A DNA stretch of 64,000 bases, from the IMG/VR virus record IMGVR_UViG_3300005537_000022, positions 34,383 through 98,382 of that record; one strand, 5' to 3'. The notes beneath the pieces are model-generated. The model ran no database searches. It was given only the letters and a program-made list of their open reading frames with translations, and was not told where the DNA came from. This document shows, one piece after another, positions 18,657 through 60,493 of this stretch. The DNA is from a virus. The stretch's first letter is position 1, and each line of letters starts with the position of its first letter. A program made the position numbers and the translations under genes.

Positions 18657-18679
18657 GTCACCTCCGCGAGAATGAGCGT

Positions 18680-21931: not shown

Positions 21932-22734
21932 GCCGGGACTATCGCGCACCGGCAGCCGCCCGGGTGGGCCGGCGGGCACAGGTCGCCCGAAGGCCACTCG
22001 ATCCCGGCGGGACGGGGATCGGCGGCGGCATTGTCCAGGCACGCCTTGCAGGTCCGGGAGTCCTGTACGGCGGCCCACCGGAGCAGTCCCGCGCCGTTCG
22101 CCTGGTACCACTCCAGCGCGGCCAGGCCGCCCGCGACCGTGATCTGGGTGACGGCCAGCCCCTCGGCGTAAGCCCCGTCCGCCACGGCGGTCTCCAGCAT
22201 GCCCGCGAGCTCGGACGCGGCCGTGTCCGGATCCCAGCCGGCGAGCACGCGGGAGACTACGTTCAGGTAGCCGTCCCCGATCGCCTGGGCGATGCCCGGC
22301 CCTTCCCCGCCGCCGGAGCCGCCGGCGAGCGAGGCGAGCAGCGCGGCCAGGCCGAGCGCCTCCGCCAGCCGCCTCGCCTTCGCCGTGTCTCCCGGGGTCC
22401 AGCCGGCCGTGTCCGCGTCGGCGCTGCCCGCCATCGCGGCCTGCGCCGACGTCCCGCCGATCGCCAGGGCGTCGGCGGCGATCCGCTCGGCCAGGTCCCC
22501 GGCCGGGACCGTGATCCCCTGCGACCGCAGCCAGGCGAGAGCCGCCGCGTTCCGCTCCCGCTTGCCGGGCGCGCTGCCGTCCTGATCCGGGTGGCCGGCC
22601 GTGTACGCGGAGGCGATGGCGTCCAGTTTCCCGCGCGAGAGCGCCTGCCGCGCCGCGGCGGTGACCTTCGGGGCCCACCAGGCGGCGGCGGCCAGGTCTA
22701 GCTTCCAGCCCGGCCAGTCACCAGGGCTTTTGGG
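21928..22734 (-). CDS. MuF-like minor head protein domain (probably translated as a frameshift fusion to portal)
   Basis: W.AVQDSRTC..C...PPAHPGGCRCAIVP C-terminus; no own start/RBS; frame entered at CCCAAAA. Confidence 0.85.
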   Translation of the reverse strand, partial: PKSPGDWPGWKLDLAAAAWWAPKVTAAARQALSRGKLDAIASAYTAGHPDQDGSAPGKRERNAAALAWLRSQGITVPAGDLAERIAADALAIGGTSAQAAMAGSADADTAGWTPGDTAKARRLAEALGLAALLASLAGGSGGGEGPGIAQAIGDGYLNVVSRVLAGWDPDTAASELAGMLETAVADGAYAEGLAVTQITVAGGLAALEWYQANGAGLLRWAAVQDSRTCKACLDNAAADPRPAGIEWPSGDLCPPAHPGGCRCAIVPA

Positions 22735-25061
22735 ACGGGCATCGCCGCCTTCACCGCGACGGTCTCTTCCGGCTCGCAGCCCAGCAGCGGCAGCACGTCG
22801 CCGAGGGAGGCGGCCAGCTCTTCCCGCAGCATCGGGTTGCCGGGCAGGTCGCACGGGTCAGCCCACATGATCGCCTCGACGGCGTCGCCGTCCGGGTCGT
22901 CCGGGTTCGGCACCACGGCACCGCCGCGGACGGGGACCGCGGCCTCGGACTCGGTCGTCCACACGATGCCCCGGTAGATGCCGTCCCCGGCCGTCCACTC
23001 GCCCGTCACCGAGCCGGGAGGGGGAACGGCCCCGGTTTCCTCTGCCCATTCGCGCCATGCGGCGCGCAGCGGGGACTCATCGCCCTCGACGTGCCCGCCG
23101 GGGAACTCGATCTTGCCTCCGGCCGGGTCGCCGGGGTCGAGCGCCCGCTGGATCATCAGGACGCGGCCGGTGTCGGCGGCGAGGACCGCGAGGCCCGCGA
23201 CCGCGACCTCGCCCGCGGCCTTGCGGACCGCGAGCCTTCCGTCGTCGTTGAGGTTGTGCGCCCAGACCCCTGGCACCGAGCGGAACTCGAAGTCCCGCCA
23301 CTCGCCATCCTTGCGGCGGGCCTTCGCGAACCGGCGGAATGCCCGCATCTCCTTGAGGACGGCCGTGCTGCGGACCGCATCCGCGTCCTCGTCATCGTCG
23401 TCATCGCCGGCGAGGTCGTAGGAGTAGATCCCCGTCTCCGCGGTGATCCCCGCGGAGGCGTTCCCGGCCGGGGCCGCGCCCTCGCCTTCCTTGGCGACGG
23501 GCTGGCCGGGCCCGGCCTCGTCGGCCGGCGTCATCTTCGGCTGCGGGGGCGGCGCCGGTGGCATCGCGGACTCGCCGAACTCCCGCTCGGCCAGCGACAT
23601 GACCTTGATCGGCGGGTTCGGCAGGACGCCCTCCGTGCCGCCGAAGACCGTCCGCGGCAGCTCCGCGCCTTCCTCGGGCAGCCCGTCCGCCGGGTCGACG
23701 TCGCCCGCGACGGCCAGCAGCGAGGAAACCGGGATGGGCCCGGCTCTCTCCGTGTAGATGAACCGGGGGATCGGCCGGGCGTCGGTCAGCCCGTAGCGCA
23801 TCTCGCGGATCTCGGACGGGCCGATGACGCCCATCTTCATGTACTTGTCGTCGGCGTTCGCCTGGTCTACGCGGTCGTCCTGCTCCTCGCCGAGGTCGAA
23901 CGCGAACTTGAGCGGAAGCTGCATGTCGTCTTGCAGGAAAGCGGTCAGGATGTCCTGCACGTGGTGGGCGAGCGGGAGGTCGCCGACGCGGTGCTGCACG
24001 TCGGCCTGCGACTCGCCGCTGCTGCGGTTCACGCTCTCGGTGAACCCGAGGTCGCTGGGGACCACGGAGTAGGCGGCGCACGTCTTGCGCATCAGGAACA
24101 AGCTGAACTTGTCGTCGAAGTCCTTCTCGCTGCTCCACGCGAACGACGAGCCGCCCGGGATCCACCGGATCTGGTGCTTGCCCTCCTGGTTGCCCAGCAT
24201 GAAGCCGTCCCAGTATTCCTGGAACTGCTCGATCTGCTCCGGGGTCCAGCTTTCGGGGGCGCCCGCGAAGGCGGCGGGCAGGTTCCCGGCGGTGAACCGC
24301 TGGAGGAAGTAGAGCTGGAACCGGATGTCGGTGTTGGCGTTGAGGAGGATGTCCTCCAGCGGCGCCCGGCCGTAAGCCGAGTCGTCCTGCGGGTCGTACG
24401 GCTCGTAGATCAGGTCGTCGCGGGTCAGCCAGTCCCAGGCCAGCCCGTTGACGTACTGGACGTAGGCGGGGGCGGGAGAGTCCGGGGGGTCGCCCCAGTA
24501 GTCGAGCAGCGGCGCGATCGTGGTGCCGTCGACGACCCTCAGGCCGACGCACCGGCCGGCCCGGTTCCGCATCCGGGCCAGGGTGCCGGCGTCGTAGGAC
24601 AGTACGCCCCTCATCCACTTGGCCAGCCACGGCTTGAACAGGGTCTTGCGGTCCGGCCGCTTCAGCGCGCGCATCCCGGCGGCGATGTCATCGGCGACGT
24701 CGCCGTCGTGGCCGTCGGCGGCGACGAGCTTCCAGTCCAGGCTGCGGAGGCTGGCGATCCTGTGGCGGATGCAGAGCTGGGCTACGTCGTAGGAGCCGAT
24801 CAGGCCCTTGAGCGTCTCGAAGCTGACCCGTTCGTGGGTGCGCGGCCGGGTGGCCACGTTGTACTGCGGGACGTACTCCTTGGACCGCGGGGTGCGGGAG
24901 AACCCGTCGTACGGCGCGATCGGCTCGCCTGGCGAGAACGGGGACGACGGGCCCATCTGGGCGCGTTCCTCGGCTGCCTCGATCGCGGGCGGGACGGAGC
25001 TGCCGAAGACCTTCGCGACAGGCACCGGCGCGGCGGCGGCGGCGCGGGAACGGACGCTCAT
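22698..25061 (-). CDS. Portal protein with C-terminal NUDIX hydrolase domain
   Basis: VDGTTI, YGRAPLE, YSVVPSDLG portal motifs; intact Nudix box GHVEGDESPLRAAWREWAEETG. Confidence 0.92.
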   Translation of the reverse strand: MSVRSRAAAAAPVPVAKVFGSSVPPAIEAAEERAQMGPSSPFSPGEPIAPYDGFSRTPRSKEYVPQYNVATRPRTHERVSFETLKGLIGSYDVAQLCIRHRIASLRSLDWKLVAADGHDGDVADDIAAGMRALKRPDRKTLFKPWLAKWMRGVLSYDAGTLARMRNRAGRCVGLRVVDGTTIAPLLDYWGDPPDSPAPAYVQYVNGLAWDWLTRDDLIYEPYDPQDDSAYGRAPLEDILLNANTDIRFQLYFLQRFTAGNLPAAFAGAPESWTPEQIEQFQEYWDGFMLGNQEGKHQIRWIPGGSSFAWSSEKDFDDKFSLFLMRKTCAAYSVVPSDLGFTESVNRSSGESQADVQHRVGDLPLAHHVQDILTAFLQDDMQLPLKFAFDLGEEQDDRVDQANADDKYMKMGVIGPSEIREMRYGLTDARPIPRFIYTERAGPIPVSSLLAVAGDVDPADGLPEEGAELPRTVFGGTEGVLPNPPIKVMSLAEREFGESAMPPAPPPQPKMTPADEAGPGQPVAKEGEGAAPAGNASAGITAETGIYSYDLAGDDDDDEDADAVRSTAVLKEMRAFRRFAKARRKDGEWRDFEFRSVPGVWAHNLNDDGRLAVRKAAGEVAVAGLAVLAADTGRVLMIQRALDPGDPAGGKIEFPGGHVEGDESPLRAAWREWAEETGAVPPPGSVTGEWTAGDGIYRGIVWTTESEAAVPVRGGAVVPNPDDPDGDAVEAIMWADPCDLPGNPMLREELAASLGDVLPLLGCEPEETVAVKAAMPVPKALVTGRAGS

Positions 25062-25790: not shown

Positions 25791-27455
25791 CTACCGGCCT
25801 GTCATGCGCGCCCGCATCGCCGCGTCCCTCGCCAGCTTCCTCGCGGTCACCGGGTCGGGAGGGACTGGCGGTTCGGGTTCCGGGGCGTCCTCGGGGGCCG
25901 GGGCGCGGCGCGGGGACGGCGCGGGGTTCCCGGCTTCGGCCTCCGCGAGTTCGGCTTTTCTTTTCGCCCAGTTAATCCAGGCTTCAGCACCGCCGCCGAC
26001 ATTCAATAGCCAGTACCTCAATGCGTCCATGAGGTGGTCGGGGGCGCTGGAGTTCGCATCTTCAGGGTCGCCCCGGGTCGCGTGCGGGAGATTGGATAGT
26101 TCCCACCACGTCTTCGGCAGCGTCCGGAAGAAATGGATCATCGGGCAGGTTTCCCAGCCCATCCCCCGGTGCATCAGGCAGGCAGGGCCTTCGGCGAGGT
26201 AGGAGTGGACGCGCTGCCACCCCGAGACCCTCGATCCCGGACCCTTGCCCGCAGGCGTCAGGTGGACGCCGTTGTCCGAGTAAATCCGGGAGATCGCCTT
26301 GGCATCGCCCCTGGTGGCAAACATCGCGTCGTCGCCGTACCGCGCCGCGATGTGCTCGGCCTCGCCCTCGGACGCGAGGATGCGCTTCGCCTGCTCCGCT
26401 TCGCCGACCTGGGTCTCGTAGATCTCGCGGTAAGCCCAGCATCTGCCGTCCTCGTCGACCGCGCCCCACAGCACAGCCCACGGTGCCGTGTAGCCCCAGT
26501 CAACCGAGCAGTACCGGCGCCACGAGGCGGGGAGCGTGAACGGGTCGACAGAGTGCCGGTCCCAGCGGAGCTCGGGGAACATCTGCCCGGCGAACTGGCC
26601 CCAGTCGCCGTCTCGCATCGCCGCGCGACGGGCCGGGTCGGGGATGGCGTCCAGGCGGCGGAAGTACGCCTCGTCCAGGTGGGGGTTGTCGGTGGCCTTC
26701 GCGGGGATGAACCGCACCGTGAGGCCGTGGTCGTCAGTGACGACCTTGCGCCCGTGCTCCGTCGGGTCGATGTACCGGGCGCGGACCTCGCCGTGACCGG
26801 GGCCGCCCGGGTTGGACGTCGACCGGATGCCGATCACCGGGACGCCGTGCGCCGACCGGAGCCGCTCAAGCGCGATCACGTCAACGATCCCCGGGGCGAG
26901 CAGCGTGCGCTCGTCGACGAACACGAGCTGGTACGCGCCGCCCTGGCGCCGGGACGCGTCGTCGAGCGTCTCCATGTAGCGCAGCCGGATCAGCGAACGG
27001 TTCGGGAAGGCGACTTCCTTCTCCGTCTTGTTCAGCCTGCCGCCGAGGGCCTCGCCCCAAGCGAACCGCTGGAACTCCGGGTAGATCGACTCCGCGAGCT
27101 CGTCATAGGAGCGGCGCAGGATCAGGACGCGGATTCCGGGGTACCGGGCACAGGCCCGCAGTGCCTCGGCGACGATCGCGGCCGTCTTGCCGCCGCCCGC
27201 CGATCCGCCGTACAGGACGTCGTCCTCGGTCGCCGCATGGAACTGCTCTTGCGGGCACTGGCCGCAGGGCTCGGGAACAATCGCGTCGCCCCGCTTGCGG
27301 GCCGCCTGGCGCGGCAGGCAGATCGGCTCGTAGCCCAGCACCTTGAAGGCGTCTACATTGCGGAGCCGCTCTTCGTCGGCCGCGCGCTTGCGCTCGCGGA
27401 GCTCGGCGAGACGGCGGAGGGTGTCAGGCGACGCCAGGACGAGGGGTGCCGGCAT
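25791..27455 (-). CDS. terL: Terminase large subunit
   Basis: Walker A YGGSAGGGKT, Walker B VFVDE, TSNPGG, DNPHL, nuclease DWGY and DHLMDALRY. Confidence 0.96.
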   Translation of the reverse strand: MPAPLVLASPDTLRRLAELRERKRAADEERLRNVDAFKVLGYEPICLPRQAARKRGDAIVPEPCGQCPQEQFHAATEDDVLYGGSAGGGKTAAIVAEALRACARYPGIRVLILRRSYDELAESIYPEFQRFAWGEALGGRLNKTEKEVAFPNRSLIRLRYMETLDDASRRQGGAYQLVFVDERTLLAPGIVDVIALERLRSAHGVPVIGIRSTSNPGGPGHGEVRARYIDPTEHGRKVVTDDHGLTVRFIPAKATDNPHLDEAYFRRLDAIPDPARRAAMRDGDWGQFAGQMFPELRWDRHSVDPFTLPASWRRYCSVDWGYTAPWAVLWGAVDEDGRCWAYREIYETQVGEAEQAKRILASEGEAEHIAARYGDDAMFATRGDAKAISRIYSDNGVHLTPAGKGPGSRVSGWQRVHSYLAEGPACLMHRGMGWETCPMIHFFRTLPKTWWELSNLPHATRGDPEDANSSAPDHLMDALRYWLLNVGGGAEAWINWAKRKAELAEAEAGNPAPSPRRAPAPEDAPEPEPPVPPDPVTARKLARDAAMRARMTGR

Positions 27456-28017
27456 CCGCCTCTCCGAGTTCGGCCGCCAGCCGGGCTATCTCGGCGTTCA
27501 CCACGTCATCGGTGATGACCTCGATGCGCGACTGGGACGGCGCGTCGTAGCCGATCATCTTCGCGCGGCGCTCGACGAGGGCACGGATCTCGCGGATCGC
27601 CGCGACGGCCGGGGCGTCGTCCATGACGTCTTCGTACAGCGGGAGGGGTGCCCCGTCGCCGTCACGCAGAACCTCGCCAGTCTCGGGATCCCGCTGCCAG
27701 CCGATCTGCTTGCCGACCACATGCCCCTGGGAAACGGTGACGTGCGGGCGGAGCATGATGTCCCATGCCTGCTCGATGAGGCGGTCGATCCGTTCGAGGT
27801 CAAGCTGCTTGGCCTGCTTGACGTCCTCGGAGGGGATGTCGGCGTAGGCGCGCATGACCGCGTCGTGGGCCTTGCCCTTGGAGGCGAAGCCGAGCTTGTC
27901 GGCGATGCGCTGGAAGCTGTAGCCGCGGGCGCGGAGGGCGGCGGCCTCGGCGTCGCGCTTCACGCTGCTGGCGGTGCGGGCGAAGCGGCCGTTGCCGCCC
28001 CGGGTTCCCGTGGTCAT
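27424..28017 (-). CDS. terS: Terminase small subunit
   Basis: HTH (LRARGYSFQRIADKLG), ERRAKMIGYDAP; overlaps terL start. Confidence 0.85.
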   Translation of the reverse strand: MTTGTRGGNGRFARTASSVKRDAEAAALRARGYSFQRIADKLGFASKGKAHDAVMRAYADIPSEDVKQAKQLDLERIDRLIEQAWDIMLRPHVTVSQGHVVGKQIGWQRDPETGEVLRDGDGAPLPLYEDVMDDAPAVAAIREIRALVERRAKMIGYDAPSQSRIEVITDDVVNAEIARLAAELGEADAGTPRPGVA

Positions 28018-28603: not shown

Positions 28604-29509
28604 TCAGGCGAGGGTTTCGGGCTGCCGGCCGTCCGCCCACCGGGCGTAGCGCCTGGTCCAGTCCCGGTACCCGGCCTCGGTCATGACGTCGCCGCACTCG
28701 GCGCACACCGACCACGGAGGGTCCTGGCCGGGGTCGTCGGGCAGGTCGGCCCGGCGGAGGGCGAGCATGTCGCATTCCGGGCAGGGGACGCCGAGCAGCT
28801 CGACCGGGCGGGGCCGGGTCTCGCCGAGGGCGGCCCGTGCCATGCGGTGGAGCCAGAGGATCTCCAGTCCCGCGTCGGCGCCGCCGAGCTCGGGGCGCAT
28901 GGCGGCGTAGCCGGAGCGGACGGTGCCGTCGGGGGCGGCGTCGCCGAGCATGGCGATGAGATGGTGGGCGGCGGCGCGGCGCACCGGCTCCGGCTCGAGG
29001 GCGAGCAGGGCGTCCAGGCGGGGGGACAGCACTTTCACGGCCCGGTCCACGAGCCAGCCGTCCCGGACGATCCTGCGGCCCTCGCCGTCGCGGTCGGGCA
29101 GTTCCGCGAGCGAGGCGACGCCGGCGACGCGGTCATGCCAGGAGGCGAGGGACTCGGTGATGGCGCGCATGAGGGCCTCGGTGCCGAGGCCGAACGGGAT
29201 GCGGGGGCCGAACGGGGAGCGGACCGCCGTAGTGCCCTGTCCCGGGTTCCGGAGGTCCCCGGCGAGCGCGGCGTAGTCGCGGGGCAGGGCGTCCAGGGCG
29301 GTGGCGGCCTTGCCCCGGTCGGGGTCGCAGAAGGCGCGCGGGCCGCGGAGGGGGATGCGTTCCGGCCCGTCGGGGCCGTCGGCGGTGACGGCGGACGCGC
29401 AGTGCTCCCCCAGGGCGCAGGGGCGGCCGTCCAGGGGCCTGCCGTCGCGTTCCGGATCGCCGCGGAAGCTGGTTGACGGGGGTGAATATGCCCAGGGAGG
29501 CAGTGCCAT
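28604..29509 (-). CDS. Zn-finger protein typical upstream of actinophage packaging genes (possible late regulator)
   Basis: CPEC...CAEC at C-terminus; position; function inferred only. Confidence 0.6.
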   Translation of the reverse strand: MALPPWAYSPPSTSFRGDPERDGRPLDGRPCALGEHCASAVTADGPDGPERIPLRGPRAFCDPDRGKAATALDALPRDYAALAGDLRNPGQGTTAVRSPFGPRIPFGLGTEALMRAITESLASWHDRVAGVASLAELPDRDGEGRRIVRDGWLVDRAVKVLSPRLDALLALEPEPVRRAAAHHLIAMLGDAAPDGTVRSGYAAMRPELGGADAGLEILWLHRMARAALGETRPRPVELLGVPCPECDMLALRRADLPDDPGQDPPWSVCAECGDVMTEAGYRDWTRRYARWADGRQPETLA

Positions 29510-29560: not shown

Positions 29561-30841
29561 CTATCCCGTCTCGCCGAGTGAGCGCTTCAGGAACTGCTTC
29601 TTGTGCTCCTGTCCCCACCGCTCGGACATCCCGACGCGCTCGGCGAGCTGGGCCCCGCTGATGTCCGGCTCCGCGGCAAGGATCTTGTCCGCGTCCTCCC
29701 GCGCGGCCCGCGCGATTTCGAGTTGCGTGCGGCCCGCAGGAGCACCCGCAGGGACAGCCCTGGACCCCGCAGGCGCGCCGGCCTTGCGGGTAAGCGACGC
29801 CGCCTTTGCCTCGGCCCGCGCGGCCCGCTGGCCGGCTTCCGCGCGGGCGGCTTCCGCGGCCTCCAGCGCCGTCCGCGCGGACTCGGCCGCGGCCCGCGCC
29901 TCGTCGAGCTGAGCCTGGAGGACAGGCCGCAGGACAGCGTCCCGCTCCACGCCGGCACGGGCGTTCCGCTCGGCATCGAGGCTGGTACGCAGGTTCCGCG
30001 TCTCGGTCTCGCGCGCCTCCCGCACCGTCCTCAGCTCAGCCCGCGCCGAGTCGAGCGCCATCTCAAGTTCCCCGCACCGCGCCTCCCGCAGGGCAGCCTC
30101 GCGGGCCGCGCCCGCGGCCTCCCGCGCGGCCTGCGTGCGGGCCTCCCCCGCGGCTTGCGCGGCAGCCCTTGCGGTCTCCAGTTCCTTGCGGAAGGCGTCC
30201 CGCTCGGCTTCGATCGCGGGGCGCAGGGCAGCCTCCCGCCGGGCCGTTTCGCGGGCCGCGCGCTCAGCCTCAAGCTCCTCCCGCAGGGTCCGCACGTCCG
30301 TCTCGCGCGCCCCCCGCGCGGTGTCGAGCGCGGCCCGCAGGGCGGTGATCTCGTCCGCCTCCGCGGCCTTGCGCCCGGCGGCCTCGGCGCGGTCCCGGTC
30401 GAGATGGCGCAGGTGCGCCAGGATGGCGCTCAGCCCGACCGCGACCAGCGGGATGGGCGTTATGAGCGCCGCCATCCACAGGGGGGCCTGCCGGTGGGCG
30501 GCGCTCACCAGGTGGCCCGCTTCCTGGCCGCCCAGGCTGAGGGCGAACATCACGATCGCGGACCACATGGCGAATGCCCGGGAGCGCGGCCCGGGTGCGC
30601 CGGCGAGCCACGCCCACAGCGCGTATCCCCAGTACGCCTCGGTGGTCACGGGGAGGATCCAGCCGGTGGTCATGCGGCCGAACTTCGGGAAGCCGGAGAC
30701 GCTGCCGATGACGAGCCATGACGCCCAGACTTCGATGAGGGCGCAGGCGGCGATGATCGCGAGGACCCAGAGGTGGTCGCGGCGGGACGTGCCCGCGGCG
30801 GGGTGCGCTTCTTCGGCTGAGTGACTGCCCATGTCGGCCAT
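29561..30841 (-). CDS. SpdB-like plasmid spread protein (TM helices, coiled coil, C-terminal HTH)
   Basis: About four N-terminal hydrophobic segments, long coiled coil, ISGAQLAERVGMSERW; downstream of traB. Confidence 0.65.
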   Translation of the reverse strand: MADMGSHSAEEAHPAAGTSRRDHLWVLAIIAACALIEVWASWLVIGSVSGFPKFGRMTTGWILPVTTEAYWGYALWAWLAGAPGPRSRAFAMWSAIVMFALSLGGQEAGHLVSAAHRQAPLWMAALITPIPLVAVGLSAILAHLRHLDRDRAEAAGRKAAEADEITALRAALDTARGARETDVRTLREELEAERAARETARREAALRPAIEAERDAFRKELETARAAAQAAGEARTQAAREAAGAAREAALREARCGELEMALDSARAELRTVREARETETRNLRTSLDAERNARAGVERDAVLRPVLQAQLDEARAAAESARTALEAAEAARAEAGQRAARAEAKAASLTRKAGAPAGSRAVPAGAPAGRTQLEIARAAREDADKILAAEPDISGAQLAERVGMSERWGQEHKKQFLKRSLGETG

Positions 30842-30915
30842 AATCTCCCGTTCCTCAAGATCGTTCCGGGTTTCGGCGCAGGGAGGCGGGGTGCCTCCCT
30901 GCGCGGGGCGGTCCG

Positions 30916-31230
30916 TCAGGCGAACTCCGCCAGCAGCGCCCGCGTCTGCTTCGGGCCCAGGCCCCGTATCCGGCGGTCGCGGGCGATGCCGATCCGGTCC
31001 ATGACCTGGCCGGCACGGACCCCTCCGAGGCCCGGCAGGGACATGAGCAGGGTCTTCACCTTCATGCCCGCGAGGACGTCGTTCTCAGCGGCCTCCGCGA
31101 TGACCGCGGCGAGCGTGACCTCCCCGGACTTGAGGCGGTTCTTGAGAGCGGCGCGCTCCTTGCGGGCCGTTGCCGCCTTCTGCAACGCTTCGGCGCGCTG
31201 CTCGGGGGTTAGTTCGGGGAGTGTTCCCAT
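30916..31230 (-). CDS. mihF: Actinobacterial integration host factor (mIHF/sIHF)
   Basis: LPELTPEQRAEALQKAA.AR..RA.LK..LK.G...MKV..LL.SLPG.G.VRA...RR.RGLG..Q..ALL.EF matches the family end to end. Confidence 0.93.
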   Translation of the reverse strand: MGTLPELTPEQRAEALQKAATARKERAALKNRLKSGEVTLAAVIAEAAENDVLAGMKVKTLLMSLPGLGGVRAGQVMDRIGIARDRRIRGLGPKQTRALLAEFA

Positions 31231-31285
31231 AATCTGTTTCTCCTTGTCGGGTAGTTCGGGTTTGATGCTGACTGCTCTCGGGCTG

Positions 31286-31510
31286 TCAGTTCCGCAGGCT
31301 GGCGGCGCGGGCCTCGTCCGGGGTGCCCCGCCCGTCGAATCCGCGCTTCTCGAAGCCCAGGGCCCGGCCGGTCGCGGGGTCCGTCCGGGACATGACCGGG
31401 GCGCCGTTTCCGTCCGTCAGGCCGAAGTCGCCTGGTGCCGCCTCCACCTGGACCTTCTTCCGCAGGCCGAGCGCCTTCATGAGCTTGCCGGGGCTCTCGC
31501 GGATCGGCAT
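31286..31510 (-). CDS. Hypothetical protein
   Basis: AAGGAG RBS; MPIRESPGKLMK. Confidence 0.5.
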   Translation of the reverse strand: MPIRESPGKLMKALGLRKKVQVEAAPGDFGLTDGNGAPVMSRTDPATGRALGFEKRGFDGRGTPDEARAASLRN

Positions 31511-31553
31511 GTTCCCCACTCTCCTTCCCTGATTGGTTACTGTGCGTGATTTC

Positions 31554-31699
31554 GACGGGGTGTCCAGGGTGTCCAGAACGGACAGTCCAGGGTGTCCAGA
31601 ACGGTGTCCAGAACGGGTGTCCTCGCGCCCGCGCGCGCACGCCTGCGCGCGTAGGGGGGCGCAGGCGGCCTCCCGGCTGGACACCCTGGACACCCCGTC
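31554..31699. repeat. clt-like array: GGTGTCCAG direct repeats bounded by a 23-bp perfect inverted repeat
   Basis: GGTGTCCAG at 31559, 31568, 31591, 31603 (partials at 31583, 31616); inverted CTGGACACC at 31677, 31686; directly after traB stop. Confidence 0.8.
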
Positions 31700-31710
31700 A
31701 CTCAGCGTGG

Positions 31711-33825
31711 TCACTGTGCGGAGTGGACGAGGGTCAGCAGGGCGGCGTCGCCCTCGGCGACCGCCCCCAGCTCGGCGTGGACCGACCGGCCCGGGACCGG
31801 GCGCCACACGCCGTCATCCACCCTGGTCACGGCGCCCCGGTCGGCCAGCCGGGACAAGGTGTCCGACACCCATGACGGGGACATGCCCGACGCCTCGATG
31901 AGTTCCCGGCGGGAGATCCCGGCGGGGCCCGCTGCGGCGAGCGCGTCGCAGAACGCCTTGCGCCTGGCGGCCTTGCCCGCGCTGGCGCGGGCCGCCGCCC
32001 CGGGGGCGGGGGCGATGTCGTCGCCCTCGGTCTCGGCAGCGATCCGGGCCGCCACCGCGGCGCCGTCCTCGTCCTGGCCGCCGGCGGGGGGAGGGACGGC
32101 TGCCGCCGGCGCGTAACCGGGGCCGTGTTCCGTTTCGCCCGGGTCGCCGAACATCTCGACGGCAGCCGCGTACTGCGGCGAGACCGGGCGGAACGCCGGG
32201 TCGGTCCGCAGGTGCCTGCGGTCCCACCACTCCTGCCACGTGAGGCTCCCGAAGCCGCTCGGCTCGCCCCCGCAGAACAGGAGCAGGCGGGGGCGCTTCA
32301 CCGTGCGGGCGTTCTCCGCGCACACCCGTTCGAGCAGCGAGTGCGGCACGTGCGGGGCGCGGAGCTTCTCCGGCCTGGCACGCGGGCCGAGCTTCATCAG
32401 GAACTCGCCCTTCTCCTCCAGCCTGGAGGCGTCGCTGCGGGCGTCGCCGAGCGCGTACGACCCGTGGTCGGCGTGCTCGACCGCGTAGCAGGCCCGCAGC
32501 GGCAGGTTCATCCGCGTCTGCTCCGTCCTGACGCTCTCCTCCAGGGCGCCGTACTGGGTGTAGACCTCGAAGTACTCCTCCAGGCCCGATCCCTGGCTGG
32601 CGCCGATGGCCAGCAGCCGGGCGCACTCGGAGTCGCCCGCGGTCACCGACGTGAGCGGGTTGGCCTCGTCGATGAGGACGTGGATCGCGGGCGTGCGCGG
32701 GTCGGCCAGGGCCTGCTCCTGGCCGGTGTCCCAGTCGCGGGCGCGGGCGGCGATCTCGGCGCACAGCATCCGCAGGCAGGCGCGGGCCTCGTCCAGGTCC
32801 GTGATCACCCAGTCGACCGCGGCGGACTTGAGCAGGGGCCGGGCGCTGCGCTTCTTCAGGTCGATGACGATCTGCCGGCTGTCGGGGCAGCCGGAGAGCT
32901 GGACGACGCGCAGCGCCAGGTGGTTCGACTTCCCGGACCTCGTCTTGCCGTTGACGAACGCATTCGTGCGCTGCGGCACGCGGACCAGCTCCCCGGTCTC
33001 GGACATGCCGAGGACCGCGTCCTCGTGCACGGAGCGGGGGGCGAGCGACGGGTCCCACTCGATGACCTCGCGCAGCGGGTTCTCCCGCTTCATGAACACG
33101 TCGGCCTGGCTGGGGTTGCCCTTGACGGGCTCCACGCGGACCATGCCGATGTCCGAGTGGCCCTGGAGCGCGGACTCGATCAGGTGCACGGCGTCCTTCA
33201 CGCTGTGGAACGACTGGCGGCCGGGCACGAGCTGGACGCGCAGCCGCACCTGGGACGGCTTCTCCTCGGCGGCGATGACCCGGGAACCGCCCACTCCCCA
33301 CGCGGGGGCGTGGGCGGCCCACCATGCCTGCCAGCCGGCCAGGAGCCTTTCCCGGTCCTTGGTGCCGCGGACCCGGTGATGCTGCCACCAGAAATATCCC
33401 CACGCGCCGGACAGGACGGCGAGGGAGCCGGCCAGGCCGGGGCCCGCGCCCGACACGGGGCCGAGCAGCGAGGCGGCGGACAGCCACCCGCAGCCCGCGA
33501 CGGCCGACAGCCGGGCGTACCACACCTCGGGCATGCGGGGCGTCCCGTCCTTCCGCGTCCACTTGTGGGGCGCGAACCACCATACGGCCGCGGTCAGGGC
33601 CGCCCCGGCGTAGGCGGCGTCCGAGCCGGTCCCGTTCGCGTGCATGATCTCCGCCGCCGTCCACGCGACGGCCGGGACCGCGACGGGCACGGAGATGTCG
33701 CGGCGGCGCCGCGCCGCCCGGATGATCCGGGCCGGGAGCGCCTCGGACTGCCGCCTCGGCTGCGGCATGCCGGGCACGTGCACGGGCGCGTGGTCCGGGC
33801 GGGGCTCGACTTCGGTGCCGGGCAC
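31711..33825 (-). CDS. traB: TraB-type FtsK/SpoIIIE conjugative DNA translocase
   Basis: N-terminal TM segments, Walker A GKTRSGKS, IDLK, Walker B VLIDE, C-terminal winged helix (GISRRELIEASGMSPSWVSDTL). Confidence 0.85.
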   Translation of the reverse strand: MPGTEVEPRPDHAPVHVPGMPQPRRQSEALPARIIRAARRRRDISVPVAVPAVAWTAAEIMHANGTGSDAAYAGAALTAAVWWFAPHKWTRKDGTPRMPEVWYARLSAVAGCGWLSAASLLGPVSGAGPGLAGSLAVLSGAWGYFWWQHHRVRGTKDRERLLAGWQAWWAAHAPAWGVGGSRVIAAEEKPSQVRLRVQLVPGRQSFHSVKDAVHLIESALQGHSDIGMVRVEPVKGNPSQADVFMKRENPLREVIEWDPSLAPRSVHEDAVLGMSETGELVRVPQRTNAFVNGKTRSGKSNHLALRVVQLSGCPDSRQIVIDLKKRSARPLLKSAAVDWVITDLDEARACLRMLCAEIAARARDWDTGQEQALADPRTPAIHVLIDEANPLTSVTAGDSECARLLAIGASQGSGLEEYFEVYTQYGALEESVRTEQTRMNLPLRACYAVEHADHGSYALGDARSDASRLEEKGEFLMKLGPRARPEKLRAPHVPHSLLERVCAENARTVKRPRLLLFCGGEPSGFGSLTWQEWWDRRHLRTDPAFRPVSPQYAAAVEMFGDPGETEHGPGYAPAAAVPPPAGGQDEDGAAVAARIAAETEGDDIAPAPGAAARASAGKAARRKAFCDALAAAGPAGISRRELIEASGMSPSWVSDTLSRLADRGAVTRVDDGVWRPVPGRSVHAELGAVAEGDAALLTLVHSAQ

Positions 33826-33827
33826 GG

Positions 33828-34793
33828 TCAGCGGCCCGCCGTCTCGGCGAGCTGGTCGTGGTGGGGCATCCGCCGGCCCGCGGCCATGGACTCCTCGACG
33901 CTGGCCTTCAGCAGGGCGGCGAGGGCGGCATCGGATTCGGCGAACGCGGACGCCGCCGCGTTCAGGTGCGAGGCGCCCATGGCTATGGGCTCGCTCACGT
34001 CATGGCCGTAGTGCTGGTCCGGCTCGGACAGGGCGCGGGCCATCGACAGGGCCATGGCGGCGGCGCGGCGGCAGATGGCGATCAGCGCGATCATGGCGCG
34101 GCGCTTGGCCTTGATGTTGCCGGCCAGCGCGTAGGCGCGGACGCGGCTCATTCCCTCGACTGCCTGCTCGACTCCGGGTACCGCCTCGGCGGCTGCTGGC
34201 GTGGTCACGGTGTTCCCTTCAGGGACGGGCGTTCCGGTAGGTCCCGGCGCGGGGCGGGGCGGGAGCGGGGGGCCGCCTCCGTCCCGCGCCGGGGGCTCTG
34301 GCGGCTGCGGGGGGTCCTGGGGGAGTGCGGGGTCCCGGGGGGTGCCGGGGCGTTCTGGGTCCGGCAGAGGGCTGGCCGGCGGCGCGGCCCCGCCGCCGCC
34401 GGGGCTGGCGCCGGCCGGGGAGTCCCGGCGGGGACGCTCGTCCCCGAGCCGGATGACCCGTCCGCGGACGGTGCCGCCCCGCGGGCGGGGGCCGAGCGGT
34501 TCCGGGGACTGCGGGCCGCCGCCCGCCGTTCCGCGGTCCCGTCCGCGCGCCCGCGCGGCGGCCTCCTGCTCTTCGAGCCTGTGCTTGTGCCGGGCCGCGT
34601 CGCGGAGCAGGCTGTTGTAGTGCTTCGCGGTCTCCAGCCGCAGGGCGCGCCGGTGAGCCAGCCAGCCGGAGAGGGGACCGCCCCGCTTCTTCCCGCCCTC
34701 GCCCCGGTGCCGCACGCGGAGCCGGGCCACGAACAAGCCCGGCACGCCGATGAGGACCAGCGCCAGGACGACATCTGCGCCGTGCACGTGCAC
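33828..34793 (-). CDS. TraA-like transfer accessory protein (TM anchor, Pro-rich linker, helical domain)
   Basis: Immediately upstream of traB; possible internal start near 34208. Confidence 0.55.
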   Translation of the reverse strand: MHVHGADVVLALVLIGVPGLFVARLRVRHRGEGGKKRGGPLSGWLAHRRALRLETAKHYNSLLRDAARHKHRLEEQEAAARARGRDRGTAGGGPQSPEPLGPRPRGGTVRGRVIRLGDERPRRDSPAGASPGGGGAAPPASPLPDPERPGTPRDPALPQDPPQPPEPPARDGGGPPLPPRPAPGPTGTPVPEGNTVTTPAAAEAVPGVEQAVEGMSRVRAYALAGNIKAKRRAMIALIAICRRAAAMALSMARALSEPDQHYGHDVSEPIAMGASHLNAAASAFAESDAALAALLKASVEESMAAGRRMPHHDQLAETAGR

Positions 34794-34797
34794 CGCA

Positions 34798-35250
34798 TCA
34801 TCCGCCTATCCACTGCGACACCTGCGCAGCCCACTGCTGCACGGGGAACACGGTCAGCACGCCGTGCAGGTGGCCGCCGCTCAGCGCCGCCGCGAAGGGA
34901 AGCGCCAGCGCGAACCAGGCGACCCTGGGCCCGGGTTCCAGCCACGCGCCGAGGACCGCCGCGAGGAACAGCGTGAAGCCGCTGATGACGACGATCTCGT
35001 GCCCGGTGCCCGTGCGGACGGGGCCCGCCATCGACACCAGGCTGGCCTCCCAGCCGGTCAGGATGCCGCCGAGGGGCGACACGACGACCGCCGCGCCGCC
35101 GGTGAACATGCCGAAGATCAGCAGCCGGTACGCCCACGGGTGCAGGCGGGGCGGCAGGTTCCCGCCGTGGCGTCCCGCGAACCATAGCAGCGCGATTACC
35201 GCGCCGAGGAGGATGACGCCGAACGAGGACCCGGCGATGGCGGCCGTCAT
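34798..35250 (-). CDS. Small multi-pass membrane protein (Spd-like)
   Basis: About four hydrophobic segments; in tra operon. Confidence 0.65.
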   Translation of the reverse strand: MTAAIAGSSFGVILLGAVIALLWFAGRHGGNLPPRLHPWAYRLLIFGMFTGGAAVVVSPLGGILTGWEASLVSMAGPVRTGTGHEIVVISGFTLFLAAVLGAWLEPGPRVAWFALALPFAAALSGGHLHGVLTVFPVQQWAAQVSQWIGG

Positions 35251-35561
35251 GCCGCCAGCCCGTTCCGCCCGGAGTTCCGCCCGGCGATGATCGCGCGCCG
35301 TTCCCGTTCGGTCGTGCCGCCCCACACGCCCCACAGCTCGCCGGCGTCCAGCGCGTGCTCGAGGCAGGCGCCCCGGACGGGGCAGGCGGCGCAGACGCGG
35401 AGGGCGGGGGCGGCAGACTGGCCGGGGTCCGGGTAGAACAGGGCCGGGTCGGTCTCGGCGCACAGCGCGCCGTCCTGCCAGGGGGGCTCTCCCGGCTGGT
35501 CCCAGCCGGGAACCGGGGGCTGCCAGGCCAGGACCTGGATGACGCGGGGATTCGCGGTCAC
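35247..35561 (-). CDS. whiB: WhiB-family regulator
   Basis: ALCAETDPALFYP...C..CPVR..C...GVWGGTTERER. Confidence 0.92.
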   Translation of the reverse strand: MTANPRVIQVLAWQPPVPGWDQPGEPPWQDGALCAETDPALFYPDPGQSAAPALRVCAACPVRGACLEHALDAGELWGVWGGTTERERRAIIAGRNSGRNGLAA

Positions 35562-35824
35562 GCCGCGCTCCTTTCCCGGCGCAGCACGGTGGCCCGCTCG
35601 CGGGCGGTCAGGCCGCCGAACACGCCGTGCCCGATCCGGTTCGCGAGCGCGAACCGAAGGCACTCGGGGCGCACCGTGCAGCCGGCGCACCAGGTGATCG
35701 CCTTGCGTGCCTGCGCCTTGAACGCCCGGGTGTCCGGGCGGGCGGCCGGGAAGAAGATCTCCGGGTCGGCGGTGCGGCAGGCGGCGAGCGCCGTCCAGTC
35801 ACGGACGGGAAACGGGGCGGTCAC
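35558..35824 (-). CDS. whiB: WhiB-family regulator (second)
   Basis: AACRTADPEIFFP...C..C.VR.EC...GVFGGLT.RER. Confidence 0.9.
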   Translation of the reverse strand: MTAPFPVRDWTALAACRTADPEIFFPAARPDTRAFKAQARKAITWCAGCTVRPECLRFALANRIGHGVFGGLTARERATVLRRERSAA

Positions 35825-35973
35825 GACGGGTCCTCCTCTTCGTCTTCGGGCCACATGACGCGGCGGAGCGCGTCGCCGAACTCCTGGGCGGCCCCCGCGT
35901 CCTTCGCGCCGATCTTGCGGACCGTGTCCCACAAGGGGTTAAGGTCCGTTTCGGTGTAGGTCCGGATGCTCAC
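35821..35973 (-). CDS. Small hypothetical protein
   Basis: GTGA-coupled in operon. Confidence 0.45.
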   Translation of the reverse strand: MSIRTYTETDLNPLWDTVRKIGAKDAGAAQEFGDALRRVMWPEDEEEDPS

Positions 35974-36064
35974 CGCTCCGGCCTCACCGGCTGGGACGGG
36001 ACGCCGCAGTGCTCGGGGGCGGTGCCCATGGCACCGCAGGCGCAGGTGTAGACGGGCTGGTCCC

Positions 36065-36370
36065 TCACGGCGCACCGCCGTCAAGGGCCGCCCGCGGGAC
36101 CGGGACCACCGGGCCGGCCAGGTCACGGCACCGCTCCGGGGTCACGCCCTGCTCTTCGAGCACGGCCATCGCGCCGGCCAGCTCGGCGAGCAGCATGTCC
36201 CCCGGGTGCGCGCCGTCGCGGATGCCCTGCGCGGTGAAGCCGGCGGCGGTGAACACCATCGCGCTGTCCCGGGCCGCCTCCGGGTCAGCGAAGCCGGGAC
36301 GGGGCCAGGTGTGGCAGCGGGCAGGCTCCCCGCCCGCCGCGCGGGGAGGGGACTCAACGGTTATTGTCAT
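36065..36370 (-). CDS. Hypothetical protein
   Basis: In operon. Confidence 0.5.
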   Translation of the reverse strand: MTITVESPPRAAGGEPARCHTWPRPGFADPEAARDSAMVFTAAGFTAQGIRDGAHPGDMLLAELAGAMAVLEEQGVTPERCRDLAGPVVPVPRAALDGGAP

Positions 36371-36455
36371 CAGTCAAGCGCTCCGATCGGTTCTGCGGTT
36401 GGGGTGCCAGGCCCGTCGCGGTGGTTGAGTCACCTGCGGCGGGCCGTCCTGTTTT

Positions 36456-36689
36456 TCAGGCTGCCGGCTTGAGCCTTGCGAGCAGGGCGAGCGCGTCGGC
36501 TTCCCTGACGCGCCGCTGGCCGCCGGGCGTGCGGGAAACCGGAAGGTGCCCCGCCTTGTCCCAGTCGCGAAGAGTGCTGGCGGGGACGGGGTAGAGCCCG
36601 GCTTCCACGAAGAGGGCCGAGACCTCGTGCGGCCTCAGCCACTTCTCTGGTGCTCGTTGCGGTGCTTCCAACGCTGTTGTCCGTCTCAT
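36456..36689 (-). CDS. MerR/excisionase-like (BldC-related) HTH protein
   Basis: LRPHEVSALF...STLRDWDKAG...RTPGGQRR. Confidence 0.8.
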   Translation of the reverse strand: MRRTTALEAPQRAPEKWLRPHEVSALFVEAGLYPVPASTLRDWDKAGHLPVSRTPGGQRRVREADALALLARLKPAA

Positions 36690-36719
36690 GGTCGGTGGGT
36701 CTTCCGGTGGTTCCGTTGC

Positions 36720-36797
36720 TTGCACTAGACTAAGGCGTCAATCCAGTGCAGTCAAGGAGGCTTTCACTAGTGCAGGCAGCTCAACTAGCCTTGGCAG
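36720..36797. promoter_or_regulatory. Divergent promoter/operator between tra operon and GntR repressor
   Basis: Minus strand TTGACT-17-TAGTCT; plus strand TAGCCT-6nt-GTG; repeated TGCACT(A/G)G half sites including CACTAGTG palindrome. Confidence 0.7.
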
Positions 36798-37265
36798 GTG
36801 CCAGTGCCCGACTATTCAGACCCGACCCCGGCCCGCAAGCAGATCGCCGACGACCTGCGGGCGCGGATTCGAGCGGGCGAATTCGCGCCCGGCAGCCGGC
36901 TTCCGTCGAACATCGCGCTGTCGGAGCAGTACGGGGTCGCGACCGAAACGGTCCGGGCGGCGCTCGAAGAACTGCGCGCCGAGGGCGTCGTGGCCACGCA
37001 GTCGACGCGCGGCACCTACGTGACGACCAGGCCGGCTGATGGCGTGCAGCCTGATCTCAGGGCGGTCGGCGAGCAGGTGGCAGAGCTTCGGCAGGAAGTC
37101 CGCGAACTTGCGGAACGCGCCGATTCCGGCGAGCTGCTCGCGAGGATCGGCCGGATCGAGGCCATCCTCGTCGGCCTCCACAGGAGGCTTGGCTTCCCGG
37201 ACCCGTACGACGGCGGCCAGGACGGCACGGAGGAAGCGGCCGCGCAGGGGAACCCGGAGCGGTAA
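36798..37265 (+). CDS. GntR-family repressor (KorA/TraR-like)
   Basis: QIADDLRARIRAGEFAPGSRLPS...L...YGVA..TVR.AL..L..EG...RGTYV; divergent from tra operon. Confidence 0.88.
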   Translation: MPVPDYSDPTPARKQIADDLRARIRAGEFAPGSRLPSNIALSEQYGVATETVRAALEELRAEGVVATQSTRGTYVTTRPADGVQPDLRAVGEQVAELRQEVRELAERADSGELLARIGRIEAILVGLHRRLGFPDPYDGGQDGTEEAAAQGNPER

Positions 37266-37446
37266 CGCCGGAATAGCGGGCCTCGCGGAAATAAGTACCC
37301 CCGGGTGATTCGTGGTCGCCCGGGGGGTTTACCGCCGATCAAGTTCCCTTACCCAGAGGATCGACTTGCCCAATTCTAGGGGCACGCCTTCGGCGTGCCC
37401 TCCCGAAATCCCATTTCGTCGCGCGCCGGCAACGGCGGCATTACCC

Positions 37447-38397
37447 GTGGGAGCCTCCAACGCGATGTCAGCACTCCGGCTGTACTCCTCCAGGGTGCCG
37501 CCGCTTTCCATGTGCGCGCTCGCCTATATGGCGCTCGTCTCCATCGACAAGGATGCTGAGCCGTGGTACCAGGCGGGGGCCGAGCTGCTCGCCGTCATGG
37601 CACTCGGCCGCGACCCGCTAGCCGAGACCGGCGACGCGAAGGCGGACGCCAGGGCGCGGAAGGCGATGGAAGTCGCTTGCGAGCGCGCACTACGGCCGCT
37701 GTTCGCCACGGGTGCGATCACGACCGCCAAGCGCTCATCGGGGCATCTGCGGGGGTCGCACCACGCGAAGTACCGGCTGTGGCTGGACGCGCCCGCACCC
37801 GACGAGGCGCGCGACCCGCGCAACCGCGCGGCGCGGGGAGCGCCCTACGGAAACCGTGGTGTGCAGAACCCGGGCGAGACGGAGGCCGGGAACCCCGCCG
37901 ATGACGGCGTGCCCTACGGAAACCGTAGGGCACCCGAGGATGGCACCCTACGGAAACCGTGCCCGCACCCTACGGAAAGCGTTACAGCGCCCTACGGAAT
38001 CCGTAGGGCTAAGGAGTACGAGGAAGAAGAGGAGCGAATAGAAAACCTAGAGGAACATCCGCCTCTCTCGTCGGACCCGGTACCGGTACGCGCACGCGAG
38101 GCATCCGACGACCGGAATCATGTGACCTCAGTTCGGGTGATCGAGTCGCCGCTGCTCGCCGTCGTCCAGACCGAGGAGACCGGGGAGGACGCCCGGTGCC
38201 GGTACGACAGGTGCCTTACGCCACCCCAGCCCATTGAGGGCGACGGCCATCACGCCCGCTGCCGTCTCCTCGCGTCCGTCAAGGCCAAGGGCAAGCAGTC
38301 CCCGGCGGCGTCACGAGCCGGGCAGCGCCAGGACCACCGGGCCGGTGCAGGCAGCACCGGCCCGGGACTAACCGAACCCAGTCAGGAGACAGCATGA
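37447..38397 (+). CDS. Putative replication initiator with internal iterons
   Basis: Helical N-terminal domain followed by linker containing five 15-bp repeats and a purine-rich tract (lambda O-like layout); start approximate. Confidence 0.65.
   Translation: MGASNAMSALRLYSSRVPPLSMCALAYMALVSIDKDAEPWYQAGAELLAVMALGRDPLAETGDAKADARARKAMEVACERALRPLFATGAITTAKRSSGHLRGSHHAKYRLWLDAPAPDEARDPRNRAARGAPYGNRGVQNPGETEAGNPADDGVPYGNRRAPEDGTLRKPCPHPTESVTAPYGIRRAKEYEEEEERIENLEEHPPLSSDPVPVRAREASDDRNHVTSVRVIESPLLAVVQTEETGEDARCRYDRCLTPPQPIEGDGHHARCRLLASVKAKGKQSPAASRAGQRQDHRAGAGSTGPGLTEPSQETA
37843..38004 (+). repeat. Iteron array CCCTACGGAAACCGT x5 (candidate origin)
   Basis: Copies at 37843, 37912, 37946, 37968, 37990; last three 22 bp apart. 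Confidence 0.85.
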
Positions 38398-47432: not shown

Positions 47433-47672
47433 ATGGGACTGTTCGGCAAGGGCGGCAAGGACAAGGACGGGGAACCGGGAGTGCCCTTGCCCGACGAGGT
47501 CAGGAAGGCCGGGCGCAACGTCCTGAACGCGTCGATGGCCGCGTACACGGCGGCCGTGAAGAGAGGCGACGGCCAGGCCGCGGCGGCCGAGCTCGACGCC
47601 CTGGAGACGCTCGGGCTGATCGGGCGCGACGAGAACGGGGTGATCCAGGTAAGCCCGGACGTGGCGCCCTAG
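47433..47672 (+). CDS. Hypothetical protein
   Basis: GAGGAG RBS; MGLFGKGGK. Confidence 0.55.
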   Translation: MGLFGKGGKDKDGEPGVPLPDEVRKAGRNVLNASMAAYTAAVKRGDGQAAAAELDALETLGLIGRDENGVIQVSPDVAP

Positions 47673-47923
47673 CCGTCTTGCGGAGGCGAGGCGAAGGTGC
47701 CGAGCCGGGCCCTGGTGTAGACCAGGCCCCGTTCGCGCAGCACGCCGATCGCGGCGCTGACGGTGTGCTTCGATACTCCGGCCTCGGCCGCCATCCGGTC
47801 CTGCGACGGGAGCCGGGAGCCGGGCGGGAACTCGCCGGAGGCGATGGCGGCGGCGATCGCGCGGGCGACCTGCTCGTGCTGCCACAGGTCCGACCCTGGC
47901 GTGATCCCGCTCCAGTCCGGCAT
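47669..47923 (-). CDS. GntR-family winged-helix protein
   Basis: IASGEFPPGSRLPS...GVS..TV..A...L...GLV....LGTF. Confidence 0.85.
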   Translation of the reverse strand: MPDWSGITPGSDLWQHEQVARAIAAAIASGEFPPGSRLPSQDRMAAEAGVSKHTVSAAIGVLRERGLVYTRARLGTFASPPQDG

Positions 47924-60205: not shown

Positions 60206-60493
60206 CGTGAGCAGGCTCCTCGCGGCGATGGCGGACGCGCTCGGCCGACTGCTCGGCCTGCACGGCCCGCTCGCCGTGCCCCGCCTGGTCCTGGCCGCCG
60301 CCCCCGTGCCCCGCGCCACGGCGGCACAGGTCCCGCACGTCCCGCGACTGCCGGGCCACTGGACTCCGATGACAGGAGGTGAGCCGTAGCGATGGAGTTC
60401 CGCTCCGCCTTTCCCTTAAGCCGTTTCTGCCGCCTGGAGATGACCCGCGTTGCCTGCTTCCCGTCGTCCCGCGTCCCGGAGGTCCTTACCGCC

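Follow-up and report, generated by a model that had tools for sequence, protein, structure and literature searches.

An uncultured temperate tailed phage of filamentous soil actinomycetes carries, directly upstream of its terminase and virion genes, a module resembling the TraB/clt transfer systems of Streptomyces plasmids. The window, i.e. the whole 64,000-nt stretch of DNA that was analyzed, corresponds to bases 34383-98382, the right two thirds, of one 98,382-bp IMG/VR virus record (IMGVR_UViG_3300005537_000022; GC content 71.7%), which is a complete or near-complete phage genome of 98.4 kb (CheckV completeness 100%). The module comprises a TraB-like DNA translocase, a clt-like repeat array right behind its gene, small membrane and DNA-binding proteins, and a divergent GntR-family regulator. 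With a probability of about 0.6, it mediates virion-independent transfer or spread of the double-stranded (ds) phage genome by a machine of the TraB/clt type under GntR control, in a phage that integrates at a tRNA-Ser gene. The sequence analysis establishes which genes are present, the fold of the ATPase, its distant relationship to Tra proteins, the retention of the module within the phage lineage, and the joint variation of repeats and recognition helix. An initial annotation, made from the letters of the window without database searches, had described the element as a candidate conjugative phage-plasmid; the TraB/clt-type module that it noted is borne out in most points, the plasmid part is not supported.

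The TraB-like translocase (704 aa; 31711..33825, minus strand) combines an FtsK-type motor with a C-terminal winged helix, as had been proposed. Walker A (GKTRSGKS) and Walker B (LIDEA) motifs are invariant in 25 homologues. The AlphaFold2 (AF2) model of the ATPase (pLDDT 82.9) matched the FtsK motor 6t8b with an E-value of 3e-17 over 387 columns in Foldseek, and also the conjugation coupling protein TcpA (E 2e-16). The N-terminal region shows six predicted helices over residues 26-176, with no segment above a Kyte-Doolittle value of 1.5; the TraB profile aligns from residue 54 onwards. At the C-terminus, the winged helix gave 21.2 bits with MarR_2 (residues 628-671), and the model displays helices at residues 639-662 plus a beta hairpin at pLDDT >90; the C-terminus of pIJ101 Tra, used as a control, yields the same weak MarR_2 match. 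Comparison with chromosomal FtsK proteins favors the plasmid side. The best NCBIfam family is plasmid_TraB (NF041214; 59.9 bits, E 1.7e-16, residues 54-364, below the equivalog cut-off), and no FtsK model was reported in the NCBIfam search. A profile of the 25 members aligned in hhalign with pIJ101 Tra, an experimentally defined transfer protein, at 96.4% probability (E 1e-9, 422 columns, query residues 160-679, winged helix included), and with 71c, the tra gene product of the plasmid-phage pZL12, at 96.3%; pZL12.71c itself lacks any Pfam FtsK match. Judged by these profiles, the ATPase is a remote relative of the plasmid Tra proteins, outside the curated TraB equivalog. At least 208 full-length homologues with 45-70% identity were found, all of them metagenomic and several on contigs of 90-165 kb, while a tblastn search of 50,697 phage records with TraB gave no match at 1e-5 and one marginal match at 0.04. 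Likewise, no relative emerged from a profile scan of genome contigs. One homologue (P0093, 1070 aa) carries in addition PF14528 (LAGLIDADG_3), probably an intein inserted in the motor domain.

Behind the traB stop codon lies the clt-like array (31554..31699), in which short 8-mers form two opposed blocks around a GC-rich core. It contains four exact copies of GTGTCCAG together with degenerate copies and two inverted copies, CTGGACAC; read in gene direction from the stop codon, two GTGTCCAG are followed by the GC-rich segment (31621-31653) and then by CTGGACAC in four exact and two degenerate copies. Of the nine exact 8-mer copies in the whole 98 kb, six fall within 134 bp after the traB stop; among random 270-nt windows of the genome, just 0.35% contain as many as seven copies of any 7-mer. 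The array is a family trait. For comparison, 63 related loci were used (8 from IMG/VR and 55 from metagenome contigs, many of them short), of which the 54 with at least 200 nt after traB could be tested for an array; nearly all of these harbor 3-10 copies of a lineage-specific 6-8-mer in this position. The words differ between lineages and include TGGACAC, GTGGAAA, GCGGACA, TGGACGA, CGGAGGA, CCGGAAT, and CGCGAACA, among others, and they change together with the recognition helix of the winged-helix domain: GRxRTWCHDQ is paired with CGCGAACA, SGVSSxxAY with GTGGAAA, GMSxSWIHP with TGGACGA, and GMSRSWIM with TGGACACC. In a partial Mantel test on 39 non-redundant loci, the k-mer similarity of the arrays correlated with helix-3 identity after removal of ATPase identity (partial r 0.35; not reached in any of 5000 permutations), against 0.07 for the partial correlation taken the other way round. 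This covariation is good indirect evidence that the winged helix of the TraB-like protein would bind the adjacent repeats. TraB of Streptomyces plasmids binds TRS repeats in clt (PMC4170104). Between the repeat blocks, the GC-rich core, of the form TACGCGCGCAGGCG...GCGCGAGG, has been retained in about 45 of the 54 loci in spite of the changing words on its flanks; in the loci L006-L070 it is located 40-76 nt after each traB stop. The core represents neither a T-tailed terminator nor a sigma-70-type promoter.

The whole module is encoded leftward on the minus strand, upstream of and co-oriented with the genes for the terminase subunits (TerS and TerL, 3.5 kb away) and the portal protein. It starts with a MerR/excisionase-type helix-turn-helix (HTH) protein (36456..36725; Pfam MerR 28.8 bits at a cut-off of 28.2, HTH_17 20 bits), homologues of which are present upstream of TraB in four related loci (L024, L025, L034, and L059). 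Two WhiB genes follow (35558..35932 and 35247..35690; Pfam Whib 70.2 and 80.6 bits, respectively), then a small polytopic membrane protein with four hydrophobic segments in a hydropathy scan (34798..35250; no family match) and, directly upstream of TraB, a Pro-rich protein with one N-terminal transmembrane (TM) segment (33828..34793). The latter, described here from translation and hydropathy, had been called TraA-like; no family match was obtained in Pfam, NCBIfam, or PHROGs, and TraA is a label only. Downstream of the array, a small open reading frame (ORF) of 77 aa (31286..31519; GC3 0.94), likewise without a family match in these three databases, precedes a nucleoid protein of the mIHF/sIHF type (30916..31230; H2TH_5 95.4 bits). 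Its product matches PDB 4ITQ (SCO1480, sIHF; E 2.9e-30) and 6TOB (mIHF; 5e-24); mIHF is also found downstream of TraB in L019, L023, and L070, and a perfect 12-bp hairpin lies 3' of the gene in the window (30876-30904). All genes listed by the initial annotation from the excisionase-like HTH to mIHF, together with the array, were checked and are present.

The last module gene (29561..30841) encodes a membrane protein in which a long coiled coil of Ala/Arg/Glu composition is combined with an HTH-like C-terminal end, as read from hydropathy and translation. Its proposed SpdB-like nature is not shown: DUF2637 matched neither this protein nor the genome as searched, and there is no similarity to pIJ101 SpdB. 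As a control, pIJ101 SpdB itself showed no DUF2637 match, so that this domain is no test for pIJ101 SpdB; Atlas leads for the TM/coiled-coil protein (SpdB_N/DUF2637) are weak, with scores of 0.78-0.83 (<0.9). DUF2637 proteins occupy the corresponding position only in L044 and L057 (37 and 74 bits). From this comparison, the membrane partner of the TraB-like pump appears to be exchangeable between lineages. A YdjM-family inner-membrane protein (60-72 bits) was observed as the next gene after the array in L011 (12316-12927), L012 (12248-12916), and L025 (10383-11063). On the other side, the GntR-family regulator (36798..37265, plus strand; GntR 66.7 bits) is divergent from the module in a Kor-like position, as initially annotated. 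The arrangement equals that of korA-tra in pIJ101 and of pZL12.80, and it is kept in seven related loci. A second GntR-type HTH gene of 84 aa is located at window position 47669-47923 (minus strand); homologues of it were seen close to the Tra module in L006, L007, and L013, and it also gave a match with pZL12.80, itself a GntR gene. Sigma-70-like promoters were not found, and terminator-like sites are no commoner than in shuffled sequence.

The initial annotation had noted that no integrase lies in the window and regarded this as a ground for persistence as a plasmid. The observation itself is correct, but the contig outside the window harbors a tyrosine integrase (487 aa; contig 15944-17407, about 17 kb before the window start) beside an HTH_3 repressor. 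Adjacent to the integrase, ARAGORN detected a tRNA-Ser(GCT)-like sequence (contig 15759-15844, L002, about 18.5 kb before the window start). Its last 33 nt are an exact match to tRNA-Ser genes of three actinomycete metagenome-assembled genomes (MAGs), one of them from Streptosporangiaceae, and one of these MAG loci (L074) encodes a 38%-identical integrase beside the same tRNA-Ser. By its sequence and neighborhood, the tRNA-Ser element is a normal attP. Since this attP is intact, the sequenced molecule was in an excised, replicating, or virion form. An excised form is compatible with integrated as well as with extrachromosomal lysogeny, and integration is clearly encoded. The two partition families searched, AAA_31 (ParA) and ParB_N, were not found in the 98-kb record, nor were terminal direct or inverted repeats detected on the 98,382-bp contig. 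A relative with a 74% identical TerL (G007) is classed as a provirus. The designation phage-plasmid is not supported, and the element seems better described as a hybrid of phage and actinomycete integrative and conjugative element (AICE), i.e. an integrative phage with a transfer module. The module resembles the TraB/clt type of Streptomyces plasmids, as had been suggested. The host is probably not Streptomyces, because the attP tRNA-Ser matches the Streptosporangiaceae MAG and two other actinomycete MAGs; it is probably an uncultured, Streptosporangiaceae-like filamentous actinomycete.

An important question is whether the module belongs to the phage at all. It could have come from an independent AICE or plasmid fragment inserted in a prophage, or from a chimeric assembly, and the block indeed holds every AICE-type function except an integrase of its own. 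However, no convincing att-like direct repeats bound the block, there is no second integrase on the contig, and the module does not differ in GC composition from the remaining genome. Three independent assemblies of this phage have nearly equal lengths (98,122-98,520 bp; the window's own protein cluster), and the module gene order WhiB-TM-"TraA"-TraB is kept across the 63 related loci at 36-69% identity: 47 loci have the Pro-rich gene immediately upstream of TraB, 34 the four-TM gene and 29-31 a WhiB gene upstream, and 15 the TM/coiled-coil gene downstream. Two relatives of 97.8 and 88.9 kb (G002 and G004) are complete with direct terminal repeats, each with TraB, portal, and integrase. Because of this synteny, the complete relatives, the three assemblies, the missing bounding repeats, and the matching composition, an inserted AICE and a chimera are effectively excluded; this already largely refuted explanation is extremely improbable. 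From the comparison, the TraB/clt-type module is, as far as sequences tell, an intrinsic, conserved, and long-standing part of a large group of uncultured actinophages. There are four further lineages (L009/L028, L011/L067, L012, and L016) in which, as in the window, TerS and TerL follow 5-6 kb downstream of TraB. This adjacency, seen in five lineages counting the window, together with the short co-oriented distance, would also suit a packaging accessory, with array and GC core as pac or cos region and the ATPase assisting the terminase. Such a role is very improbable, as the phage has a complete terminase of TerS and TerL, no recognizable terminase lies nearby in about half of the long related loci, and the motor appears to possess N-terminal helices of the membrane type along with TraB-like N-terminal homology. 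Given these loci, the link between TraB and packaging genes is recurrent but not universal.

The main rival concerns the purpose of the pump rather than its origin. Motor and repeats might distribute the excised or replicating phage genome inside a single organism (to branches, compartments, or prespores) as a partition substitute serving vertical inheritance. Neither ParA nor ParB turned up in the genome, an FtsK motor fold with an 8-mer-reading winged helix follows the logic of FtsK/KOPS and SpoIIIE, and the opposed repeat blocks converging on a conserved core resemble KOPS pointing to dif. Furthermore, intramycelial spread and plasmid stability have been argued to be inseparable (PMC4170104). 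Such a segregation pump is nevertheless unlikely, since the nearest characterized relatives by profile are transfer proteins and not chromosomal FtsK, and since a phage with integrase and attP has no need of a partition device. Distinctly improbable is a function in host takeover or exclusion, by which the membrane ATPase would act on host or competitor DNA, pumping it out, blocking it, or causing a kil-type arrest, with the repeats being regulatory. In PHROGs, the ATPase matched phrog_1358 (phage FtsK/SpoIIIE-like; E 5e-12), which is filed under "moron, auxiliary metabolic gene and host takeover". In Streptomyces plasmids, moreover, Tra proteins show kil phenotypes for which Kor repressors are required. 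Yet the phage itself carries the recognition repeats, clustered beside the gene, and they covary with the DNA-reading helix, which points to an action on the phage's own DNA.

Several observations weigh against transfer as the function of the module. The host is uncultured, and the case for transfer was built from sequence. The ATPase remains far below curated thresholds, with its 59.9 bits facing an equivalog cut-off of 800 for plasmid_TraB and 13.9 bits facing a cut-off of 24 for Pfam FtsK_SpoIIIE. FtsK-type pumps with 8-mer-reading winged helices serve chromosome segregation too, so that the same anatomy fits vertical inheritance. None of the window's membrane proteins flanking traB has an Spd family match, the tra gene of pZL12 is not followed directly by a repeat array, and about half of the long related loci are without a recognizable terminase within 8-10 kb. 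Finally, phylogeny is only partly controlled in the covariation of array and helix 3, which may partly reflect an exchange of winged helix and array as one cassette.

If the module does serve transfer, it could work as follows. The divergent GntR regulator would keep the module off in the manner of a Kor repressor. Upon expression, hexamers of the TraB-like protein would be recruited by their C-terminal winged helix to the 8-bp repeats, the equivalent of clt/TRS, and the motor would pump the ds, excised or replicating phage genome across the membrane or septal cross-wall into a neighboring hyphal compartment or a contacting hypha. The flanking small membrane proteins might assist, as Spd proteins do, with mIHF bending the DNA. 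After arrival in the new compartment, the phage DNA could either insert at tRNA-Ser by means of the tyrosine integrase that it encodes or start lytic growth. DNA binding, pumping, direction of transfer, GntR control, and the roles of the flanking membrane proteins are the parts of this scheme that we infer.

Following the GntR gene, a gene with five internal iterons (best start 37447; 37447..38397, plus strand) had been annotated as Rep. The iterons are evident: they measure 16-19 nt, are situated at 37840-38005 inside the coding region, and three of them are in 22-bp phase. The Rep identity is unproven, with no Pfam, NCBIfam, or PHROG match. The gene family (270-316 aa) has 16 homologues besides its own cluster, with 44-63% identity, which keep the iteron-encoded AP(Y/H)GNRG peptides and, behind them, an acidic EYEE stretch and then a zinc finger; since these peptides are kept, so are the iterons. 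In the AF2 model, a winged-helix-like N-domain (pLDDT 83-93) precedes a disordered, iteron-encoded middle part (<50), and the C-terminal zinc finger was matched by Phage_zn_bind_8 in two homologues. Foldseek returned no significant fold (best E 0.26), with iteron-binding initiators recurring among the weak rows. No homologue was found in the TraB loci. The origin of phage lambda is held inside the O gene. By analogy, the iteron gene is a candidate for a lambda-O-like initiator with its own origin.

The closest known parallel in organization is pZL12/phiZL12 (GenBank GQ919031; Zhong et al. 2010, J Bacteriol 192:3747), a 90-kb circular Streptomyces plasmid-phage. Its record shows virion genes, terminase, the FtsK-like 71c together with genes 72c and 73c, then GntR gene 80 in divergent orientation and gene 82 for replication, in addition to ParA, ParB, and an integrase/recombinase. 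pZL12 reportedly forms plaques and infective virions and also transfers conjugally, the one element for which virions and conjugal transfer are both reported. A passage of PMC3583192 cites both its virions and its conjugal transfer; the element has been called well characterized, and a relative, pSLE1, has been described (PMC4487206). The present phage is similar in size and has the same layout but is unrelated in sequence: in tblastn against GQ919031, 7 of its approximately 155 proteins gave weak matches, of which only the Dam methylase reaches 45% identity, with TraB and 71c sharing 28% over 165 aa. While pZL12 has ParA/ParB and lives as a circular plasmid, integrase and tRNA attP are encoded here and no Par genes were found; the repeat array right after the tra gene is present here and missing in pZL12. 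Dual spread by virions and conjugation would thus not be a new concept, having one experimental precedent in pZL12. New with respect to this precedent are the different Tra family, the integrative rather than plasmid lifestyle, and the opposed repeat blocks around a conserved core.

The TraB/clt systems of Streptomyces plasmids (pSVH1, pIJ101, and pSG5; PMC4170104) likewise unite an FtsK-like ATPase with a winged helix, adjacent short repeats, downstream membrane proteins, and a divergent GntR regulator. They differ in that homology to their TraB is remote (59.9 bits at a cut-off of 800), in that the phage repeats form two blocks of opposite orientation with a conserved GC-rich core between them, and in their carriers, which are small plasmids instead of a 98-kb tailed phage. 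AICEs consist of Int, Rep, and an FtsK-domain Tra and reside mostly in tRNA genes (PMC3218068). Those like pSAM2 share with the phage a tyrosine integrase with a tRNA site, a (remote) FtsK-type Tra, GntR, and, as a candidate, the iteron initiator. The phage adds full sets of virion, lysis, and packaging genes, and its 98 kb go beyond the regions of 30 to 60 kb that the AICE survey scanned (PMC3218068). With FtsK/KOPS/dif and SpoIIIE/SRS, it has in common the motor fold, a winged helix that in the phage would read oriented 8-mers, and opposed repeats converging on a central site; unlike there, profiles are nearer to plasmid Tra, and the repeats are clustered in one 146-bp locus instead of being spread over the replicon.

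The nearest deposited packaging and virion genes (TerL with 56.5% identity, portal, tail tube, and tape measure) are encoded on pAmyja1 (NZ_CP008954), a 92.5-kb circular plasmid of Amycolatopsis japonica. Directly upstream of its terminase, at 16691-19000 (L001), ParB, a PAPS-reductase, and a second ParB occupy the place of the Tra module, and no TraB-like match was found on this plasmid. From such comparisons, related virion modules seem to be combined with one of two types of cassette, for partition or for transfer. A screen of the CONJscan type would miss single-protein TraB systems, and hybrids like the present phage may therefore go uncounted. The survey of phage-plasmids sought conjugation genes with CONJscan, i.e. 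relaxase plus mating-pair genes (PMC7969092). In a literature search, no paper combining AICE, prophage, TraB, and terminase was found.

The remaining genome is that of a tailed phage. Genes were called by third-position GC because of the many spurious ORFs in this DNA, and the larger ones were checked against Pfam, NCBIfam, and PHROGs. The set of virion, packaging, and lysis genes includes TerL, portal, tail tube, tape measure, prohead protease, a GH25 lysin, and tail fibers. The minus strand of the window starts with the annotated tail fibers, followed by the tape measure (4882-7941; 34% identity to that of pAmyja1) and, from the gene map, the tail tube (8603-9700) and the prohead protease (18138-18656). 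Next are a portal protein fused to a NUDIX domain (22698..25061; Phage_portal 56 bits, NUDIX 55 bits) and TerL (25791..27455; Terminase_6N 32 bits), which besides its similarity to the pAmyja1 terminase shows 30-35% identity to many phage TerL proteins. The probable small subunit TerS (27424..28017) matched phrog_645 (E 3e-24), a family annotated beside TerL in Arthrobacter phages, and TerS-like genes are syntenic with TerL in L011, L012, and L016. A phage DNA-binding protein (28604..29509; phrog_1568, E 3e-17) completes the minus-strand genes up to the module; it is kept between TraB and terminase in at least six loci. From about 36.8 kb, the plus strand encodes regulators, a YqaJ/RecT recombination pair, and methylases, as well as a phage replication-initiation protein in the early operon (60392..61459, plus strand; phrog_3926, E 1.3e-13). 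Left of the window, the contig holds small early genes, the GH25 lysin, and tail spikes. A 156-nt stretch of an RlaP-type nucleotidyltransferase gene (window 39102-39839, 72 bits) is 86.7% identical to the nucleotidyl transferase gene of the Streptomyces jumbo phage Frankenweenie; no other match to a deposited phage was seen at the DNA level. A megablast search with 20 kb of sequence in plasmid and phage collections gave nothing useful.

A bolder extension of the transfer reading, doubtful at present, would be that a large group of uncultured tailed actinophages routinely spreads its genomes from hypha to hypha without virions via TraB, the GC core between the opposed repeats being the site where the ds DNA circle is loaded or opened. 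If true, phages of mycelial bacteria would possess a receptor-independent second route of infection, and a defined cis site would be available for testing how an unprocessed circular plasmid is threaded by TraB. Dozens of natural combinations of protein and differing 7-8-mer repeats also make the family a possible resource for studying how the winged helices of TraB/FtsK proteins read DNA. Should the module work as in plasmids, such phages would have two routes at their disposal, virions and direct passage of DNA between hyphae, which would change the view of host range, receptor-based resistance, and the spread of lysogens in mycelial soil bacteria.

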